A stretch of DNA of 50,413 nt from Phyllobacteriaceae bacterium (GCA_031401375.1 JANNRN010000044.1:1-50413), one strand, 5' to 3'; numbered from the stretch's first letter, positions 11,262 through 50,413 are shown. A program made the numbers and translations. The notes: generated by a model not told the origin, from the letters alone.

Positions 11262-11531
11262 TTATTCTGCGGCCTCCGCTTTCGGCATGACCGAAATGAA
11301 ACAGCGGTTGTTGGCTTTGGTGTTGAACACCACGGTGCCCGCAACGGTCGCGAAAATGGTGTGGTCCTTGCCCAGACCTACACCGGTTCCGGGATGCCAC
11401 TGGGTTCCGCGTTGGCGGGCAATGATGTTGCCGGCAAGGACGCTCTGTCCGCCGGACTTCTTCAGGCCGAGGCGTTGCGAGGCCGAGTCGCGGCCGTTGC
11501 GCGATGAACCGCCAGCTTTCTTGTGTGCCAT
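11262..11531 (-). CDS. rpmA: 50S ribosomal protein L27
   Basis: [43 protein letters not shown].. Confidence 0.97.
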
Positions 11532-11542
11532 GGGTTTTCTCC

Positions 11543-11947
11543 TTACTCGGCTGCGGCAGCTTCGACTTCGGCTTTCGCCTCAGGCTTGGCTGTCTTGGCG
11601 GGCTTTGCGGCGGCCTTCCTGGACGGCTTGGCGCCGCCCGTGAGGATTTCCGCAATACGCACCGTTGTCAGGTGCTGGCGATGGCCGCGGGTGCGCTTGG
11701 AATTCTGCCGGCGGCGCTTCTTGAAAGCGATGACCTTGGCGGCGCGGCCCTGCTCGACGACTTCCGCCGTCACGATCGCACCTTCCACTGTGGGCGCACC
11801 GATGGCCGCATCGGCGCCTTCGCCGACAACCAGCACTTCGGTAAACTGCACGATGTCACCGGCATTGCCGGCGAGTTTCTCGACCTTCAAAAGGTCGTTG
11901 GCGGCGACGCGATACTGCTTGCCGCCGGTTTTGATGACTGCGAACAT
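11543..11947 (-). CDS. rplU: 50S ribosomal protein L21 with an Ala/Lys/Pro-rich C-terminal tail
   Basis: [25 protein letters not shown].. from ATG 11947. The last ~35 aa are [31 protein letters not shown]. Confidence 0.95.
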
Positions 11948-12070
11948 TATTTTCCCTTTCGGTTGTTCGTCCGGCTCATCAGGCACAGGGCCTGCGGCCG
12001 TCTTTTTGTCAGTCTATGACCGGGTTGATTAAATGCATATGGCGCGGAAAGCCCACGCCACACACGGCGC

Positions 12071-12271: not shown

Positions 12272-12361
12272 GGAGAGGTGGCAGAGTGGTCGAATGCACC
12301 GCACTCGAAATGCGGCATGCTCGCAAGGGCATCGGGGGTTCAAATCCCTCCCTCTCCGCCA
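12272..12361 (+). tRNA. tRNA-Ser (anticodon CGA)
   Basis: GGAGAGG acceptor stem pairs with CCTCTCC, followed by G-CCA. Anticodon loop is CTCGAAA, with a long variable arm and T-loop GGTTCAAATCC; 90 nt. Confidence 0.93.
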
Positions 12362-44001: not shown

Positions 44002-45243
44002 TTGGCAAAGTCCGCGATACTTGTCGGCGGCGGGATCATCGGGATCACTGCCGCCATCGCACTCGCAGAGGCCGGCTACGCGGTCACGGTGATTGACCGG
44101 ACCGGCATTTGCGAGGAAACAAGCGCCGGCCACGCCGCCGCGTTTGCCTTTTCCGACATCATGCCGATGGCGCACAAAGGGTTCCTCAAGAATGTGCCCG
44201 GCTGGCTGATGGACCCGCTCGGGCCTTTGACGATTGCGCCAAACTATTTGCTGACGATCACGCCCTGGCTGTTGAAAGTCGCGCGCGAAGGTCAGGCATC
44301 AAAACGCGATGCCGCCATTGCCGCGCAAGCGTCTCTGATGAAACTGGCCGCGAACGAGATGAGTGCGCTGGTGGCGCGGGCCGGTATTGACAGCCTGGTG
44401 CGCCACGATGGTTCACTGGAACTCTACAAGAGCGAGGCGGCATTCAGCTCCGCACAGCCGGGCTGGGCGTTCCGCGAAAAACATGGCGTGCCGTTTGAAC
44501 ATGTGCGCGGTGAGCGATTGAAGGAGTTGCAGCCCGGCCTGTCCGACAAGGTCGTCGCGGCGACGTTTTCGCCGTCATGGAAAACGGTCAGCGATTCAAA
44601 AGGTTTTGGCAAAGCGCTTTGGGCCCATGCCGAGACGCTGGGCTGCCGTTTTGTCAAAGGCGAGGTGGCTGTTATTCGCGGGCAAGAAGGCGGTGCGGGC
44701 GTGGTCACGAAAGACGGCGCCGGATATTCTGGCGATGTCGCGCTTGTGTGTGCGGGCGCATGGTCGCATCGCCTGGCCAAGCAATTGGGCGACATCATTC
44801 CGCTTGAAACCGAGCGCGGCTATAACACGACGCTGCCGAAGAACGCGGCGGATGTGAAGCGCATGCTGATCTTCTCGTCGGAAGGCTTTGTGCTGACCCC
44901 TTTGGAAAACGGCATCCGGATCGGCGGCGCCGTCGAGTTCGCCGGTCTCGAGAATCCGCCCAATTACAAGCGCGCCGATGCGATGCTGACCAAGGCCAAG
45001 CGTTATCTGCCTGACTTGAACATCTCCGGCGGCACGCAATGGATGGGTTTCAGGCCGTCGCTGCCCGATACTTTGCCGGCTATCGGACGGTCAAGGTTCT
45101 CACCGCATGTGCTCTATGCATTCGGCCACGGACACCTTGGCCTTACCCAGTCGGCGGCGACTGCGCGGCTTGTCATGGATTTGGCGCTTGGCAACACCGC
45201 AGCCCTTGATTTGAAACCGTTTTCGCCGCAACGGTTCGGGTGA
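44002..45243 (+). CDS. FAD-dependent D-amino-acid dehydrogenase-like oxidoreductase, probable D-hydroxyproline dehydrogenase
   Basis: (TTG)AKSAILVGGGIIGITAAIALAEAGYAVTVIDR dinucleotide fold; DadA-like length of 413 aa; operon context. Confidence 0.75.
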   Translation: MAKSAILVGGGIIGITAAIALAEAGYAVTVIDRTGICEETSAGHAAAFAFSDIMPMAHKGFLKNVPGWLMDPLGPLTIAPNYLLTITPWLLKVAREGQASKRDAAIAAQASLMKLAANEMSALVARAGIDSLVRHDGSLELYKSEAAFSSAQPGWAFREKHGVPFEHVRGERLKELQPGLSDKVVAATFSPSWKTVSDSKGFGKALWAHAETLGCRFVKGEVAVIRGQEGGAGVVTKDGAGYSGDVALVCAGAWSHRLAKQLGDIIPLETERGYNTTLPKNAADVKRMLIFSSEGFVLTPLENGIRIGGAVEFAGLENPPNYKRADAMLTKAKRYLPDLNISGGTQWMGFRPSLPDTLPAIGRSRFSPHVLYAFGHGHLGLTQSAATARLVMDLALGNTAALDLKPFSPQRFG

Positions 45244-45252
45244 GGATTTTTC

Positions 45253-46254
45253 ATGGCGCGGCACACATTCTTTTGCATTGACGGACATACGTGCGGAAAT
45301 CCGGTGAGGCTGGTTGCGGGCGGCGGCCCCCTTCTTTCCGGCGCGACCATGATGGAGAAGCGGGCGCACTTCCTCGCCGAATTCGACTGGATCCGCACCG
45401 GGCTGATGTTTGAGCCGCGCGGCCATGACATCATGTCGGGGTCGATCCTGTATCCGCCGACGCGCGCGGACTGCGACATCGCAATCCTTTTCATCGAAAC
45501 ATCCGGATGCCTGCCGATGTGCGGCCACGGCACGATTGGCACCGTCACCATGGCGCTGGAAAACGGCTTGGTCACGCCAAAGACGCCAGGCGTGCTGCGG
45601 TTGGATACGCCCGCGGGGCTGGTCATTGCGGAATATCGCCAGGATGGCCAGTTTGTCGAAGAAGTGCGCATCACCAACGTGCCGTCATTTCTTTACAAAC
45701 AGGGGCTCGAGGTCGAATGTCCTGATCTTGGCGCATTGACTGTGGATGTGGCCTATGGCGGGAATTTCTACGCCATTGTCGAGCCGCAAGAAAACTACCG
45801 GGACATGGCGGACTACACGGCGCTTGATTTCATCAAATGGAGCCCGGTGCTTCGCCGCAGACTCAATGAGAAGTACACATTCGTGCACCCGCAGAGCCCG
45901 GACATCAACCAGCTTTCACACCTCTTGTGGACAGGAGCTCCGATCCATCCTGATGCGCACGGCCGCAACGCGGTCTTCTATGGCGAGAAGGCCATCGACC
46001 GGTCACCTTGCGGGACCGGCACGTCGTCGCGGATGGCGCAGCTCCATGCCAAGGGCAAGCTGAAAGCGGGCGAGGAATTCGTGCACGAATCAATTATCGG
46101 CTCCATGTTCAAGGGCAGGGTTGAACGCGAAGTCGACTTCCACGGTTACAAGGCAATCATCCCTTCGATCGGCGGTTGGGCGCGGATGACAGGCTACAAC
46201 ACGATTTTTATCGATGACCGCGATCCGCTGTCGGCCGGGTTCACGGTGCGCTAA
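45253..46254 (+). CDS. 4-hydroxyproline 2-epimerase (proline racemase family)
   Basis: FFCIDGHTCGNPVR. Both catalytic positions are Cys (LPMCGHGTIG and DRSPCGTGTS), which indicates an epimerase/racemase rather than a dehydratase. Confidence 0.88.
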   Translation: MARHTFFCIDGHTCGNPVRLVAGGGPLLSGATMMEKRAHFLAEFDWIRTGLMFEPRGHDIMSGSILYPPTRADCDIAILFIETSGCLPMCGHGTIGTVTMALENGLVTPKTPGVLRLDTPAGLVIAEYRQDGQFVEEVRITNVPSFLYKQGLEVECPDLGALTVDVAYGGNFYAIVEPQENYRDMADYTALDFIKWSPVLRRRLNEKYTFVHPQSPDINQLSHLLWTGAPIHPDAHGRNAVFYGEKAIDRSPCGTGTSSRMAQLHAKGKLKAGEEFVHESIIGSMFKGRVEREVDFHGYKAIIPSIGGWARMTGYNTIFIDDRDPLSAGFTVR

Positions 46255-46502
46255 AGGTTAATATCCACATGGGGTTTTGCAAAATCAACGATGTTTCCAC
46301 GGTGTTTTCGGCAATTCTGCGGTTCGATATCCTTCTACTTCGCACAATCATGGTGACTTTCACCAAAATCCGGCTAACCAAGAGTCAATTTGACTAGACC
46401 TGTGCAAAAGCGGTTGCTTTCCGCGGGCGTCTCGCTAGTCTTTGCACAAAATCAGGGAACGAGGCCGCGCAACGTCGCGGCGAAACGGGGGAATTGTACC
46501 GC

Positions 46503-47417
46503 ATGGAGTATTTCGTCCAGCAGGTCATCAACGGCTTTACGTTGGGTTCAATCTACGGCCTCATCGCCATCGGCTATACGATGGTTTACGGCATTATCGG
46601 CATGATCAATTTCGCGCATGGCGACATCTTCATGATTGGCGCCTTCATGGCGTTGATCATGTTCATGATTGTCGCGCCGATCCTGGGCACCGGGGCGGTG
46701 GCCATTGCCCTGGCGATCATCATCATGCTCGTTGTGGCGATGTTGCTGACAAGTCTTTGGAACTGGTCGATTGAGCGCATTGCCTACCGGCCGCTGCGCG
46801 GTTCGTTTCGCCTCGCGCCGCTGATTACGGCGATTGGCATGTCGATCGTGCTGTCGAACTTCGTGCAGGTCATGCAGGGTCCGCGCAACAAACCGATCCC
46901 GGCGCTTGTCACCGGCAATTACACGATTCCGGGAACAGACGTGAACGTGTCGCTGAAGCAAATCCTGATCTTTCTGGTGACGGCGGTTCTGCTTTACGGC
47001 TTCTGGTACATCGTCAATCGAACGCCGCTTGGGCGGGCGCAGCGAGCCTGCGAACAGGACCGCAAAATGGCGGCGCTGCTCGGGGTGGACGTCGACCGGA
47101 CGATTTCGATCACGTTCATCATGGGCGCGGCGCTGGCGGCTGTGGCCGGCACGCTGTACCTGTCCTATTATGGCGTCGTCGTCTTCACCGATGGCTTCGT
47201 TCCGGGCGTCAAGGCGTTCACCGCCGCGGTTCTTGGCGGCATCGGTTCGCTGCCGGGGGCTGTCGTCGGCGGGCTGCTGATCGGGATGATCGAAGCCTTG
47301 TGGTCGGCCTATTTCTCGATTGATTACAAGGATGTGGCCGCTTTCTCGATCCTTGCCATCGTGCTGATCTTCCTGCCGTCCGGTATTCTCGGACGTCCTG
47401 AAGTGGAAAAGGTATAA
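46503..47417 (+). CDS. livH: branched-chain amino-acid ABC transporter permease
   Basis: [41 protein letters not shown].. Confidence 0.92.
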
Positions 47418-47422
47418 TCCCC

Positions 47423-48805
47423 ATGGCGATGAATTCCGCTTCTTCCGGACCCGAAAATCGCGGTTCCAAGGCCATACGCGACGCGCTTTTCACCGGGCTC
47501 ATTGCGTTCGGGCTGTTTGTGCTCCTGGTCGGGCTCGAAACCGGCCAGAACATCCGCAATGAGCTGATCCTCATTCCCCACTGGGGATTGCTGGCGATCT
47601 TTGTGATCACGGCCATGGTTCTGCGCTATCTGATTGATATGGTCTTCAGACCTTATTTCGCCGAACGCCGGACGGCAAAAGCGGCCGTCGTCGTTGATGT
47701 GAACGCCAAGCCGAGTTACTTCCGGAAGAACTTTTCCAATATCGCCATCGCATTTCTGTTTGTATACCCATTCCTGGTCCTCGCACTGGTCGGTGTTCCC
47801 GGTTCGCTCAAATGGGTCGATAATTTCGGCATCCAGATTCTTATTTATGTGATGCTGGCCTGGGGTCTCAATATCGTGGTGGGCCTGGCGGGCCTGCTCG
47901 ATTTGGGTTATGTCGCGTTCTACGCCGTTGGCGCTTATTCCTATGCCCTGCTGTCGACCTATTACGGGCTCTCATTTTGGGTGCTGCTGCCGATGGCCGG
48001 GATTTTTTCTGCGCTCTGGGGCATCATGCTTGGGTTTCCGGTCCTGCGCCTTCGCGGTGACTATCTTGCCATTGTGACGCTGGCGTTCGGAGAAATCATC
48101 CGGCTGGTGCTGATCAACTGGACGGCGGTCACCAAGGGAACATTCGGTGTTTCCGGCATTGCCAAGGCGACGCTGTTCGGCATGAATTTTGACGCCACGC
48201 CAACCGGATTCGCCGCGACTTTCGGCCTTGCGCCATCGTCGGCCTATTACAAGATTTTCCTCTATTATCTCATCCTGCTTCTGGCATTGTTGACCGCCTT
48301 TGTGACAATCCGCTTGCGCCGCATGCCCATTGGCCGTGCGTGGGAAGCGTTGCGTGAGGACGAGATCGCCTGCAAGTCGCTTGGCATCAACACCACGACA
48401 ACCAAGCTCACGGCCTTTGCCACCGGCGCCATGTTTGCCGGCTTTGCGGGTTCGTTCTTTGCCGCGCGGCAGGGCTATGTCTCGCCCGAATCCTTCGTCT
48501 ATCTGGAGTCAGTCATCATTCTCGCCATCGTCGTGATTGGCGGCATGGGTTCGCTGATCGGCATTGCAATTGCCGCGGTGGTAATGATCGGCGGCACCGA
48601 AATCCTGCGCGAACTGTCGTTCCTCAAAATAGTTTTCGGCGAAGGCTTTACGCCTGAGCTTTACCGCATGCTGCTCTTCGGCCTCGCCATGGTGGGCGTC
48701 ATGCTCTACAAGCCGCGCGGTTTTGTCGGCAGCCGCGAACCGACCGCATTCCTCAATGAGCGCAAGATGGTTTCCAGTGAATTTACCAAAGAGGGGCATG
48801 GCTGA
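47423..48805 (+). CDS. livM: branched-chain amino-acid ABC transporter permease (long LivM type)
   Basis: ..[43 protein letters not shown].. with a C-terminal cytoplasmic tail. Confidence 0.92.
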
Positions 48806-50413
48806 TGGCCTCTGATCCAATACTCTCGCTCGAACACGTGTCGATGAAATTTGGCGGCCTTATCGCCGTCAACGACCTGTCGTTTGTGGCCGAACGCGGT
48901 GAGATCACAGCGCTGATCGGTCCGAACGGTGCGGGCAAAACCACGGTGTTCAACTGCATTACCGGCTTTTACAAGCCGACCGAAGGCATGATGACGCTGA
49001 AGCGCAAGAATGGCGAGAGCTATCTTCTGGAGCGTATGGCCGATTTCGTCGTGACGAAGAAGGCGAAGGTCGCCCGCACATTCCAGAACATCAGGCTGTT
49101 CTCCGGCATGACCGTTCTGGAAAATCTTTTGGTGGCCCAGCATAATGGTTTGATGAAAGCGTCGGGTTACACCGTTCTTGGCCTGCTCGGCTTTCCGACT
49201 TACAAGAAAGCGGAAAAGGCCTCGATCGAAAAGGCGCGGCGCTGGATTGAAAAAATCGGACTGATCGATCGCGCTGATGACCCGGCCGGTGATCTTCCCT
49301 ATGGTGCGCAGCGCCGGTTGGAAATCGCCCGGGCCATGTGCACGGATCCGGAACTCCTGTGCCTGGATGAACCGGCTGCCGGTCTCAATCCAAAAGAATC
49401 CGCCGAGCTTAACGATCTGCTGCGCGCCATCCGCGACGAGACGGGCACCTCGATCCTTCTCATTGAGCACGACATGTCTGTCGTCATGCAGATTTCCGAT
49501 CACGTCGTGGTGCTCGAATACGGCATCAAGATTTCCGACGGTTCGCCCGCTCACGTGACAAGTGACCCCAAAGTCATTGCGGCCTATCTCGGTGTGGAGG
49601 ATGAAGAGGTTGGTGAAGTGCTGAGTTCGGTCGGCGACGAGGGCGTGCTGAATCGACTCGACGTGGAGCCTGACCGGGCACATGGCCCCGGCGCATCGTC
49701 CTCGATGATGGCCGGACCGATTTCCGATACAATTGGGCACAGCGACAGACGTGGCGAAGTCGTTCGTGTTTCAGCCGGCGCCTCAAATTCGGCGCGGGTC
49801 AAGAGCGCCAAACCGGGCGCCGTTGCCAAGCCAAAGACCGCCGCCAAAGCTGCTCCTTCTACCGTAGTTTCGGCAAAGGCCCCGGCCAAAATTGCTGACA
49901 TCAAACCAGCCGCCAAGGCAACAAAGCCTGCGGCCAAGCCCGCCGCCGCCAAGCCCGCCGTTGCCAAGGCGGTTGCAAAGCCGGCGGCGAAACCCGCATC
50001 CGCCAAAGCCCCGGCGGTGAAGGCTGCTGCAAAACCTGCAGCGCCCGCCAAGGCAACCAAGCCTGCGGCCAAGCCCGCCGCTGCCAAGGCAGTCGCAAAG
50101 ACTGCGGCGAAACCCGTATCCACCAAAGCCCCGGCGGTGAAGGCATCTGCAAAACCTGCGGCGCCCGCCAAGTCTGCGGCCAAGACCGCCGCTGCCAAGG
50201 CGGTTGCAAAGCCGGCGGCGAAAACCACATCCGCAAAGGCCCCGGCAGCTCCTGCAAAACCGGCTGCCAAGGCTGCGGCCAAAACCGCGCCGACCAAAGC
50301 ACCGGTGGTGAAAGCCGCTGCGGCGCCGAAACTTGCCGACGATCTTCTCATCATCAAAGGCATTGGCCCGGTGAACAAGCAGAAGCTCGCTGCGCATGGC
50401 ATCACGACTTTTG
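48805..50413 (+). CDS. livG: LivG-type ABC ATPase fused to an Ala/Lys/Pro-rich repeat tail and a helix-hairpin-helix motif (3' end beyond the window)
   Basis: Not in the ORF track (no stop in the window). The ATG overlaps the livM stop (ATGA). Hand translation: [82 protein letters not shown]. It continues open for another ~270 codons through (K/A/P)-rich repeats to ..LADDLLIIKGIGPVNKQKLAAHGITTF. Confidence 0.85.
   Translation, partial: MASDPILSLEHVSMKFGGLIAVNDLSFVAERGEITALIGPNGAGKTTVFNCITGFYKPTEGMMTLKRKNGESYLLERMADFVVTKKAKVARTFQNIRLFSGMTVLENLLVAQHNGLMKASGYTVLGLLGFPTYKKAEKASIEKARRWIEKIGLIDRADDPAGDLPYGAQRRLEIARAMCTDPELLCLDEPAAGLNPKESAELNDLLRAIRDETGTSILLIEHDMSVVMQISDHVVVLEYGIKISDGSPAHVTSDPKVIAAYLGVEDEEVGEVLSSVGDEGVLNRLDVEPDRAHGPGASSSMMAGPISDTIGHSDRRGEVVRVSAGASNSARVKSAKPGAVAKPKTAAKAAPSTVVSAKAPAKIADIKPAAKATKPAAKPAAAKPAVAKAVAKPAAKPASAKAPAVKAAAKPAAPAKATKPAAKPAAAKAVAKTAAKPVSTKAPAVKASAKPAAPAKSAAKTAAAKAVAKPAAKTTSAKAPAAPAKPAAKAAAKTAPTKAPVVKAAAAPKLADDLLIIKGIGPVNKQKLAAHGITTF
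49915..50270 (+). repeat. in-frame imperfect tandem repeats (135 nt, 120 nt, then a degenerate ~100 nt unit) inside the livG extension
   Basis: Unit 1 (49915-50049) encodes KATKPAAKPAAAKPAVAKAVAKPAAKPASAKAPAVKAAAKPAAPA. Unit 2 (50050-50169) encodes KATKPAAKPAAAKAVAKTAAKPVSTKAPAVKASAKPAAPA. Unit 3 starts at 50170 and is degenerate. Confidence 0.85.

Follow-up and report, generated by a model that had tools for sequence, protein, structure and literature searches.

The stretch of DNA analysed here, 50,413 nucleotides from a Phyllobacteriaceae bacterium (GCA_031401375.1, JANNRN010000044.1:1-50413; the whole of it is called the window below), ends within a livG gene whose product is the true ATPase subunit (LivG/BraF) of an importer of the ATP-binding cassette (ABC) family, of LIV/Bra type, for branched-chain amino acids (or amino acids in general). 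The reading frame continues well past the canonical LivG end into a long tail, composed of an acidic linker, a low-complexity tract rich in alanine, lysine and proline (AKP) and a terminal helix-hairpin-helix (HhH) domain, related to the one located at the C-terminus of the phasin PhaH. Such LivG-HhH fusions are the norm across Phyllobacteriaceae- and Brucellaceae-type genomes. What may be new, with chances judged to be about even on the analysis reported here, is that an ABC importer, as a new class of cargo, carries a nucleoid-tether module of the PhaH type.

The long livG frame and its occurrence

An earlier reading, made from the sequence only, had noticed that the livG frame stays open far beyond the point where LivG proteins usually end, and the in-frame fusion proved to be real. 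Starting from position 48,805 of the plus strand, 536 codons were read up to the window edge without a single stop, and 272 of them lie beyond the canonical LivG end (..VIAAYLG). The gene is missing from the listing of open reading frames (ORFs) because its frame runs past the end of the window. The closest database protein (P0001, 587 aa) lies on a Logan contig from another, near-identical strain (L085), and is identical to the window protein over residues 1-360 and over the start of the HhH domain. Outside the repeat described below, the two nucleotide sequences are 99.7% identical, with about 10 differing sites, synonymous, in about 3.3 kb. In L085, 51 further codons of livG follow the position of the window edge; they complete the HhH domain and end in ..KAAKAGGRK, where the stop sought by extending the sequence was found: a TAA overlapping the ATG of livF. 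A stop/start overlap is also present in the syntenic contig L001, and the long livG was shown to be translationally coupled to livF.

The first 263 residues form the nucleotide-binding domain (NBD) of LivG, in which the Walker A (GPNGAGKT), Q-loop (Q94), signature (YGAQRR, within YGAQRRLEIAR), Walker B (LLCLDEP) and H-loop (IEHD) motifs are all intact. Pfam ABC_tran was matched at residues 22-191 (E 3.8e-29) and the LivG-specific BCA_ABC_TP_C (PF12399) at residues 242-266, with 36.8 bits against a cut-off of 25.5. Residues 3-263 align to positions 2-253 of the 255 of the NCBIfam LivG model with 321.7 bits, under the equivalog cut-off of 362; the protein is an alphaproteobacterial Bra-type orthologue and not an equivalog of the E. 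coli protein. It shares with the canonical 255-aa ATPases of the HAAT family, E. coli LivG and Rhizobium BraF, an NBD aligned end to end, the BCA_ABC_TP_C region and an operon containing livH, livM, livF and a binding-protein gene, and differs from them by about 325 additional C-terminal residues.

The occurrence of the fusion was evaluated by searching for homologues with the same domain order, as the sequence-only reading had advised. The terminal domain is present in frame, in one to three copies, in 117 of the 120 best homologues, which range in size between 470 and 740 aa. A genome scan, in which one genome per species was considered, detected 536 relatives of the domain, and among the best 80 loci, which were inspected, 76 are LivG fusions, some of them on complete chromosomes. 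The genera involved are Mesorhizobium, Aminobacter, Phyllobacterium, Brucella (ex-Ochrobactrum), Pseudochrobactrum, Aestuariivirga, Aquamicrobium, Pseudaminobacter and Limoniibacter. The architecture had been regarded as unusual; being the norm in the clade, and already machine-annotated, it loses its novelty, while the feature itself stays. The annotation consists of automatic names only. Homologues are named by JGI 'ABC-type BCAA transport ATPase component/predicted flap endonuclease-1-like 5' DNA nuclease', and pipeline names are inconsistent ('ATP-binding cassette domain-containing protein', 'flap endonuclease-1-like nuclease'). In the library searched, no paper was found to link LivG with a helix-hairpin-helix domain, and nothing relevant was returned on COG3743 or on NuoE with a C-terminal extension.

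A tblastn search of plasmids, which returned 8 records, mostly mislabelled chromosomes or chromids, detected non-LivG carriers of the domain in Rhizobium and Sinorhizobium and no LivG fusion. For Rhizobium lusitanum a single 2.4-Mb 'plasmid' replicon was searched, the chromosome not being in the collection, and the nearest copy of the domain is located there on a protein with four transmembrane helices, not on LivG. A contig titled Bacillus subtilis strain SK6B4 (JAHREI010000006.1) contains a LivG-HhH linker and tail nearly identical to those of a Pseudochrobactrum contig (L073) and of a Rhizobiales isolate (L064); it probably comes from a public assembly that is contaminated or mislabelled.

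A frameshift or lost stop, introduced by sequencing or assembly and joining a normal livG of about 260 aa to downstream sequence, has a practically nil probability. Some features of the region could suggest it: the tail contains a GC-rich tandem repeat of 120 nt, poorly handled by short-read assemblies, the repeat region is unlike between the window and L085, and GC-rich DNA yields long spurious ORFs by chance, such as an antisense ORF of 273 aa found in the window. An error of this kind is excluded because the fusion is widespread in homologues and complete chromosomes. More than 100 assemblies, independent of each other, share the in-frame architecture, and some of these are complete genomes, such as Mesorhizobium sp. 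L-8-3 and several chromosomes of Aminobacter; the frame is not a chance one, since 117 of the 120 best homologues end in the same conserved folded domain. The stop is coupled to the start of livF, a separate livG stop is absent and another gene would not fit. The artefact is effectively refuted by the homologues, the genome loci and the stop/start overlap taken together.

The terminal domain, the linker and the repeat tract

The order of the parts of the tail (acidic linker, AKP tract, HhH) had been read correctly; their coordinates are reported in Table 1. The window ends with LADDLLIIKGIGPVNKQKLAAHGITTF, which is the start of the HhH domain. The 28 residues of the domain contained in the window are 100% identical to residues 506-533 of P0001, and the matches described here, beyond these residues, rest on the remainder taken from P0001/L085. 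The domain completed in this way matches Pfam HHH_5 with E 4.7e-5 and 24 bits, just under the gathering cut-off of 27 bits, while 45 bits are reached by a three-copy homologue. Among NCBIfam families, the best match is to the long form of NuoE (PRK12373), where the domain falls on positions 321-386 of 400 with 72 bits. Further matches involve the C-terminal ends of two long forms of L21 (67 and 59 bits), positions 169-233 of 234 of the phasin PhaH (NF045508, 58 bits, E 1.3e-15) and the C-terminal end of a long S2 (41 bits). A search of the PDB sequences detected two proteins of nuo operons, each matched at its C-terminus, namely Urf1/protein-3h (9wqv_a) with E 5e-11 and protein-O (8yy9_O) with E 4.5e-10, and in S. 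meliloti the domain is carried by a 214-aa ORF located between nuoF and nuoG. The presence of the same C-terminal HhH on NuoE and on other proteins, put forward in the sequence-only reading, was thus confirmed.

The Urf1/protein-O domain has been described as lying on a long flexible loop, and as cleaved or untraced in structures of the reaction centre-light-harvesting 1 (RC-LH1) complex; in the same papers a homologous domain is reported to recur on NuoE, on an ATP synthase subunit and on an 'endonuclease' (PMC12079452, PMC13066640). The two entries were considered as a possible solved structure of the domain and discarded: 9wqv and 8yy9 contain it in sequence only, the C-terminal domain being cleaved or untraced, so that there is no experimental structure.

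An AlphaFold2 model of the domain alone, with a predicted local distance difference test score (pLDDT) of 85, contains five helices (16-24, 30-34, 38-48, 53-56, 59-67). Its comparison to the PDB by Foldseek gave weak matches (E of at least 0.3, TM scores of 0.55-0.64), all to domains of (HhH)2/SAM-like type, with the AR2 domain of NusA on top, and the N-terminal domain of RadA/Rad51, BAF and the thumb of Y-family polymerases also found. Since all E values are at least 0.3, the comparison indicates a fold class only, common to DNA-binding and protein-binding (HhH)2 domains, and the terminal domain is predicted from its model to belong to a five-helix (HhH)2-like class. Alignment of 21 diverse LivG-linked copies revealed 24 invariant positions (D..L..IKGIGPVN..KL..HG...F.QIAAW...D....E.YL.FDGRI.RE.W..QA). 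The net charge averages +1.4 in LivG fusions (pI 8.3) and -0.9 in multi-copy, membrane-anchored relatives; in the window lineage the domain is followed by a short basic end (..KAGGRK). A further copy was searched for elsewhere in the window and none was found.

The five-helix (HhH)2-like class, with its GIG hairpin, is shared with ComEA and other non-specific binders of double-stranded DNA, such as the N-terminal domain of RadA/Rad51 and domain II of RuvA; moreover, many members of the family resemble ComEA in running from a membrane anchor through a linker to the HhH. The similarity to ComEA is not significant, however (2duy, E 0.78), the arrays described below are predicted to be cytoplasmic rather than periplasmic, and the second hairpin, unlike that of the known binders, is a family-specific FDGRIxREDW motif.

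Many homologues bear the JGI label 'predicted flap endonuclease-1-like 5' DNA nuclease', derived from COG3743, but a nuclease identity was ruled out: just a helical module of about 65 aa, of HhH/H3TH-like type, is present, and the PIN/5'-3' exonuclease catalytic domain was not found by Pfam either in the protein or in the 82 family members scanned. The name 'FEN-1-like nuclease' is misleading because the nuclease domain is absent.

An exhaustive HMMER search with the 69-aa domain detected 8,772 clusters (50% identity) at E <= 1e-3. The top matches contain 3 to 25 tandem copies, the largest being a protein of 3,115 aa from a Verrucomicrobiota metagenome-assembled genome (MAG; representatives P0121-P0269), and the clusters are named 'hypothetical protein' or 'flap endonuclease-1-like'. 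Pfam analysis of the 150 best representatives revealed HhH-type families only, and no other domain. As these 150 are dominated by multi-copy, membrane-anchored proteins, the single-copy fusions (NuoE, L21) were deduced through the NCBIfam models. Most multi-copy members start with a transmembrane helix, followed by RR and by an Ala/Pro linker, and their inter-domain linkers are Ala/Pro/Ser-rich and neutral to acidic. By the positive-inside rule, the helix followed by RR places the arrays, as predicted, in the cytoplasm and at the membrane. Many of them end in a conserved cap, GGxTEFSRRVDxGxV, which is also found on Brucella-type and some Mesorhizobium LivG tails; the window protein, the rest of its tail being taken from L085, is without it.

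Other carriers have different partners. In an uncultured alphaproteobacterium (L007, 3908-5470), a sugar-type (YtfR/RbsA-like) ABC ATPase with a single NBD has an N-terminal HhH domain and an AKP linker of about 200 aa, which is an independent joining of the module to a second ABC ATPase family. The domain family was thus shown to be appended, via low-complexity linkers, to subunits of big assemblies (NuoE, Urf1, L21, S2, PhaH, other ABC ATPases) or to N-terminal membrane anchors. A further membrane-anchored carrier in the clade, observed in Rhizobiaceae and Mesorhizobium MAGs (L079, 3362-4252; L080, 3365-4249), is a protein of 291 aa composed of a transmembrane helix, a coiled-coil-like segment, a K/A/S/T-rich linker and one HhH domain.

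The acidic segment following the NBD had been described as a linker, which it is, and turned out to be more than that: it is a conserved 68-aa motif, with 13 positions invariant in 16 homologues (P289, D290, H293, P295, S298, S300, A303, G304, H312, G317, E318, A326 and S327). The motif was detected in all of the 120 closest homologues and in 39 genome loci; it is absent from Phyllobacterium, Brucella and non-LivG carriers and is specific to LivG fusions of the Mesorhizobium/Aminobacter-like clade. No match was obtained in a Pfam search, and in the AlphaFold2 model the segment is predicted with low confidence, just two short helices being formed.

The AKP tract, composed for 80% of alanine (77 residues), lysine (38) and proline (26), has a net charge of +37 and an isoelectric point of 11.3; in the window protein it has no Pfam match, HC2 for example, at E <= 0.01. 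When the window was compared to L085 (3300-3720), about 112 of the 123 differences were found to fall in 49,886-50,300. The net indel in the repeat is 9 nt and therefore the reading frame is kept. The difference reflects either strain-level hypervariability or a mis-assembly of the repeat in one of the contigs, the repeat being a likely cause of assembly errors. An AlphaFold2 run on full-length P0001, with an alignment of 16 sequences, gave moderate confidence for the NBD, pLDDT values under 50 for residues 275-505 and of 85-90 for residues 506-578; the model is consistent with disorder of residues 275-505.

The segment between NBD and HhH domain ranges, among LivG orthologues, from 50 to 365 aa, and from -16 to +36 in net charge. 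Aminobacter fusions contain over 300 aa of AKP, the tract is far shorter in Phyllobacterium, and in some Mesorhizobium-like genomes the linker is made up of 85 acidic residues only. Brucella/Ochrobactrum and Pseudochrobactrum LivG have about 50-60 acidic residues and no AKP; a K/A/P-rich stretch is located after the HhH domain instead. The AKP tract was evaluated as the key conserved DNA-binding element and ruled out as such at clade level, being absent, acidic or short in orthologues and variable between strains. The histone-H1-like tail proposed in the sequence-only reading is thus present, but it does not belong to the conserved core. The tract is a lineage-specific, fast-changing spacer, and the conserved unit is composed of the NBD, a flexible linker with an acidic start, the HhH domain and a short basic end.

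The resemblance to the histone-H1-like AKP/KPAA tails of PhaF, PhaM, AlgP and mycobacterial HupB, each a positively charged Ala/Lys/Pro repeat on a non-DNA protein, is one of composition only; PhaF, PhaM and AlgP tether polyhydroxybutyrate (PHB) or polyphosphate granules to the nucleoid (review PMC13052382). The LivG tract differs from these tails in not being conserved in orthologues and in being followed by a folded HhH domain.

Possible roles of the tail

The tail may be a flexible tether joining the transporter to the nucleoid, a role whose probability is set at about one half. The long LivG, being part of the LivHMGF complex and located on the cytoplasmic side of the membrane, would extend a disordered segment of about 245 residues, and the terminal (HhH)2 domain would bind double-stranded DNA non-specifically, as reported for PhaH, so that the importer would be loosely tied to the surface of the nucleoid. 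The disordered segment would provide a reach of about 10-25 nm on average and of about 90 nm when fully stretched, according to a polymer estimate made here. In the window lineage, the +37 AKP tract could add electrostatic affinity for DNA or for other polyanions. The outcome would probably be spatial: either the transporter would be spread evenly along the cell and inherited evenly, or the nucleoid periphery would be anchored to the membrane; altered transport chemistry appears less likely.

A DNA-binding tail, possibly acting as a tether, had already been proposed from the sequence, and it is the best supported reading, since the match of the domain to the PhaH model falls on the C-terminal end of the latter. 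In Caulobacter crescentus, PhaH binds PHB granules through its N-terminus and DNA, non-specifically, through its C-terminal HhH, and deletion of phaH leads to disorganised granules, as stated in a review (PMC13052382) on the basis of Salinas et al. 2023. PhaH and long LivG have a similar layout, composed of a cargo-binding N-terminal part, a low-complexity linker and a terminal HhH of about 65 aa, and the reported role of PhaH is to position a large cytoplasmic object along the nucleoid through non-specific DNA binding (PMC13052382). They differ in that the cargo of LivG is an inner-membrane ABC importer and not a PHB granule, the LivG linker is much longer and polycationic, and DNA binding by LivG is so far presumed. 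The portability of the module, as seen in the fusion to the sugar-type ATPase of L007, in the membrane-anchored arrays and in basic K/A/P stretches located on either side of the domain, according to genus, also suggests a tether.

Several points weigh against this role. The DNA binding of PhaH is reported in a review (PMC13052382), that of the LivG fusions is inferred, and the benefit of an importer-DNA link is presumed. The domain has a weakly basic character in LivG fusions and a slightly acidic one in the arrays, where linkers are neutral to acidic, which is atypical of an electrostatic DNA binder; in Brucella-type orthologues a strongly acidic linker (net -11 to -16) comes right before it. 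NusA AR2, which ranks first among the structural neighbours, although at a Foldseek E of at least 0.3, is an (HhH)2 domain that binds protein. Finally, the homologous C-terminal domain of Urf1/protein-O is invisible or cleaved in the RC-LH1 structures, and its function is termed 'obscure' (PMC12079452, PMC13066640).

Some of these observations would fit a protein-protein docking module of NusA AR2/SAM-like type, clustering its carriers through a common partner or through each other, with the AKP tract as a mere spacer; this alternative is considered rather unlikely. NusA AR2 bound to SuhB is the top Foldseek match and SAM domains are also listed, the charge of the domain is near-neutral or acidic across the wider family, tandem arrays of 3-25 copies on membrane anchors resemble multivalent scaffolds, and membrane complexes include many of the carriers among their subunits. 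A candidate partner is not known, however, and PhaH, the sole member with reported biochemistry, is said to bind DNA. Moreover, with E values of at least 0.3 the choice between NusA AR2 and the RadA N-terminal domain is not significant, and the ribosomal proteins and the phasin found among the carriers are hard to fit with a single membrane partner.

Alternatively, the tail could have little or no function in the transporter, being a tolerated mobile cassette, made of a linker and a small domain, spread by recombination among abundant alphaproteobacterial proteins; its effect would not go beyond that of an entropic bristle or a solubility spacer, or it would be proteolytically removed after assembly. 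The linkers of the orthologues, with 50-365 aa and charges between -16 and +36, are unconstrained in length, charge and sequence, strains that are otherwise nearly identical have a hypervariable repeat, and one to three copies of the domain are found in close LivG homologues; furthermore, Urf1 is cleaved in its linker and its C-terminal domain is missing from the purified complex. Dispensability is nonetheless quite improbable: the domain is strongly conserved, as indicated by the 24 positions invariant in 21 LivG-linked copies, and is kept at the C-terminus of LivG across several genera, the frame is preserved through every change of the repeat, the same module was independently joined to a second ABC ATPase family, and the deletion of PhaH has a phenotype. 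Even for a dispensable tail, the hypervariable in-frame repeat would be a clean natural case of an unconstrained spacer between constrained domains.

Should the tail bind DNA, as in the tether model, a major amino-acid importer of rhizobia and of the Brucella group would be physically coupled to the chromosome, and a role would be gained for a large uncharacterised domain family. The use of the nucleoid as a scaffold is known for PHB granules, polyphosphate granules and carboxysomes, and the principle would then reach integral membrane machines. In symbiotic nitrogen fixation, the Bra/LIV system is of importance (PMC2978685).

A wider proposal, to be entertained tentatively and judged somewhat doubtful, is that the PhaH-type HhH module is a general alphaproteobacterial nucleoid-attachment tag, joined by dispensable low-complexity linkers to abundant assemblies (ABC importers, complex I, the RC-LH1 accessory protein, ribosomal proteins, PHB granules) and also displayed on dedicated membrane anchors as arrays that reach about 25 copies. 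In that case long LivG would truly tether the membrane to DNA, the inner-membrane proteome would be partly positioned and partitioned by hitch-hiking on the chromosome, and transport and respiratory complexes would pin the nucleoid periphery to the envelope. The long NuoE and the Urf1/protein-O/protein-3h proteins of Rhodobacterales and Rhizobiales are comparable to LivG in being membrane-complex subunits in which a long flexible loop leads to a compact C-terminal domain; their N-terminal partner is an Fe-S subunit or a transmembrane hairpin and not an ABC NBD. The CrtA protein of C. sphaeroides, whose disordered C-terminal tail mediates association with a membrane complex, provides no more than a loose analogy.

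Gene layout of the window

The long livG is part of an importer operon with the order livH-livM-livG-livF-DUF6867-binding protein. The livH product aligns over its full length to the NCBIfam LivH model with 330 bits, under the cut-off of 379, and the gene order around livH matches that of the syntenic L001, which reads DAO, proline-racemase-like, livH, livM, long livG, livF, DUF6867 and periplasmic binding protein. The TGA stop of livM and the ATG of livG (48,805) overlap by one base (TGATG). Downstream of livG, livF, the DUF6867 gene and a Peripla_BP_6 gene are present in the syntenic L001 and L002, and the start of livF follows in L085. The set expected for an operon of the LivG/HAAT family, that is two BPD_transp_2 permeases, LivF and a binding protein, was thus found, its downstream part via L001, L002 and L085. 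The small DUF6867 gene is located between livF and the binding-protein gene (10848-11189 in L001, 4102-4443 in L002), the equivalent region lying past the end of the window.

Table 1. Features of the window, with their position, strand and supporting data.
Feature	Position	Strand	Data
rpmA (L27)	11262-11531	minus	after rplU
rplU (L21, 147 aa)	11543-11986	minus	short AKP/Glu-rich tail
tRNA-Ser(CGA)	12272-12361	+	sole tRNA and sole Rfam match in the window
FAD-dependent oxidoreductase gene (DAO)	44002-45243	+	directly upstream of the liv operon
Proline-racemase-family gene	45253-46254	+	directly upstream of the liv operon
livH/braD-type permease gene, first of the transporter operon	46494..47417	+	Pfam BPD_transp_2, E 8e-48
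livM/braE-type permease gene	47423..48805	+	N-terminal DUF3382 and BPD_transp_2 (Pfam); NCBIfam LivM 407 bits, above the 366 cut-off
Long livG ORF, truncated at the window end	48805..50413	+	536 codons visible, no stop; predicted total about 590 aa
LivG NBD, aa 1-263	48805..49593	+	motifs read in translation, Pfam, NCBIfam
Acidic His-containing linker, aa 264-331 (68 aa)	49594..49797	+	net -7; EDEEV..VGDE..PDxAHGPxxSSSMMAGPxSDTIGHS..GE..V..GAS
AKP low-complexity tract, aa 332-508 (177 aa)	49798..50328	+	predicted disordered
Tandem DNA repeat in the AKP tract	49948..50246	+	120-nt (40-codon) unit x2.6; Tandem Repeats Finder score 388, 83% matches
First 28 codons of the C-terminal five-helix (HhH)2-like domain (predicted), PhaH/NuoE-C-terminal type	50329..50412	+	remainder beyond the window

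Far from the operon, the L21 protein encoded in the window has a short AKP-type tail, as had been pointed out from the sequence; the HhH domain is absent from this L21, though the NCBIfam models of long L21 end in it.

The DAO and proline-racemase-family genes look like a hydroxyproline/proline-derivative catabolic cluster located beside the importer, and in L001 the pair is preceded by dihydrodipicolinate synthase (DHDPS)-like and GntR genes.

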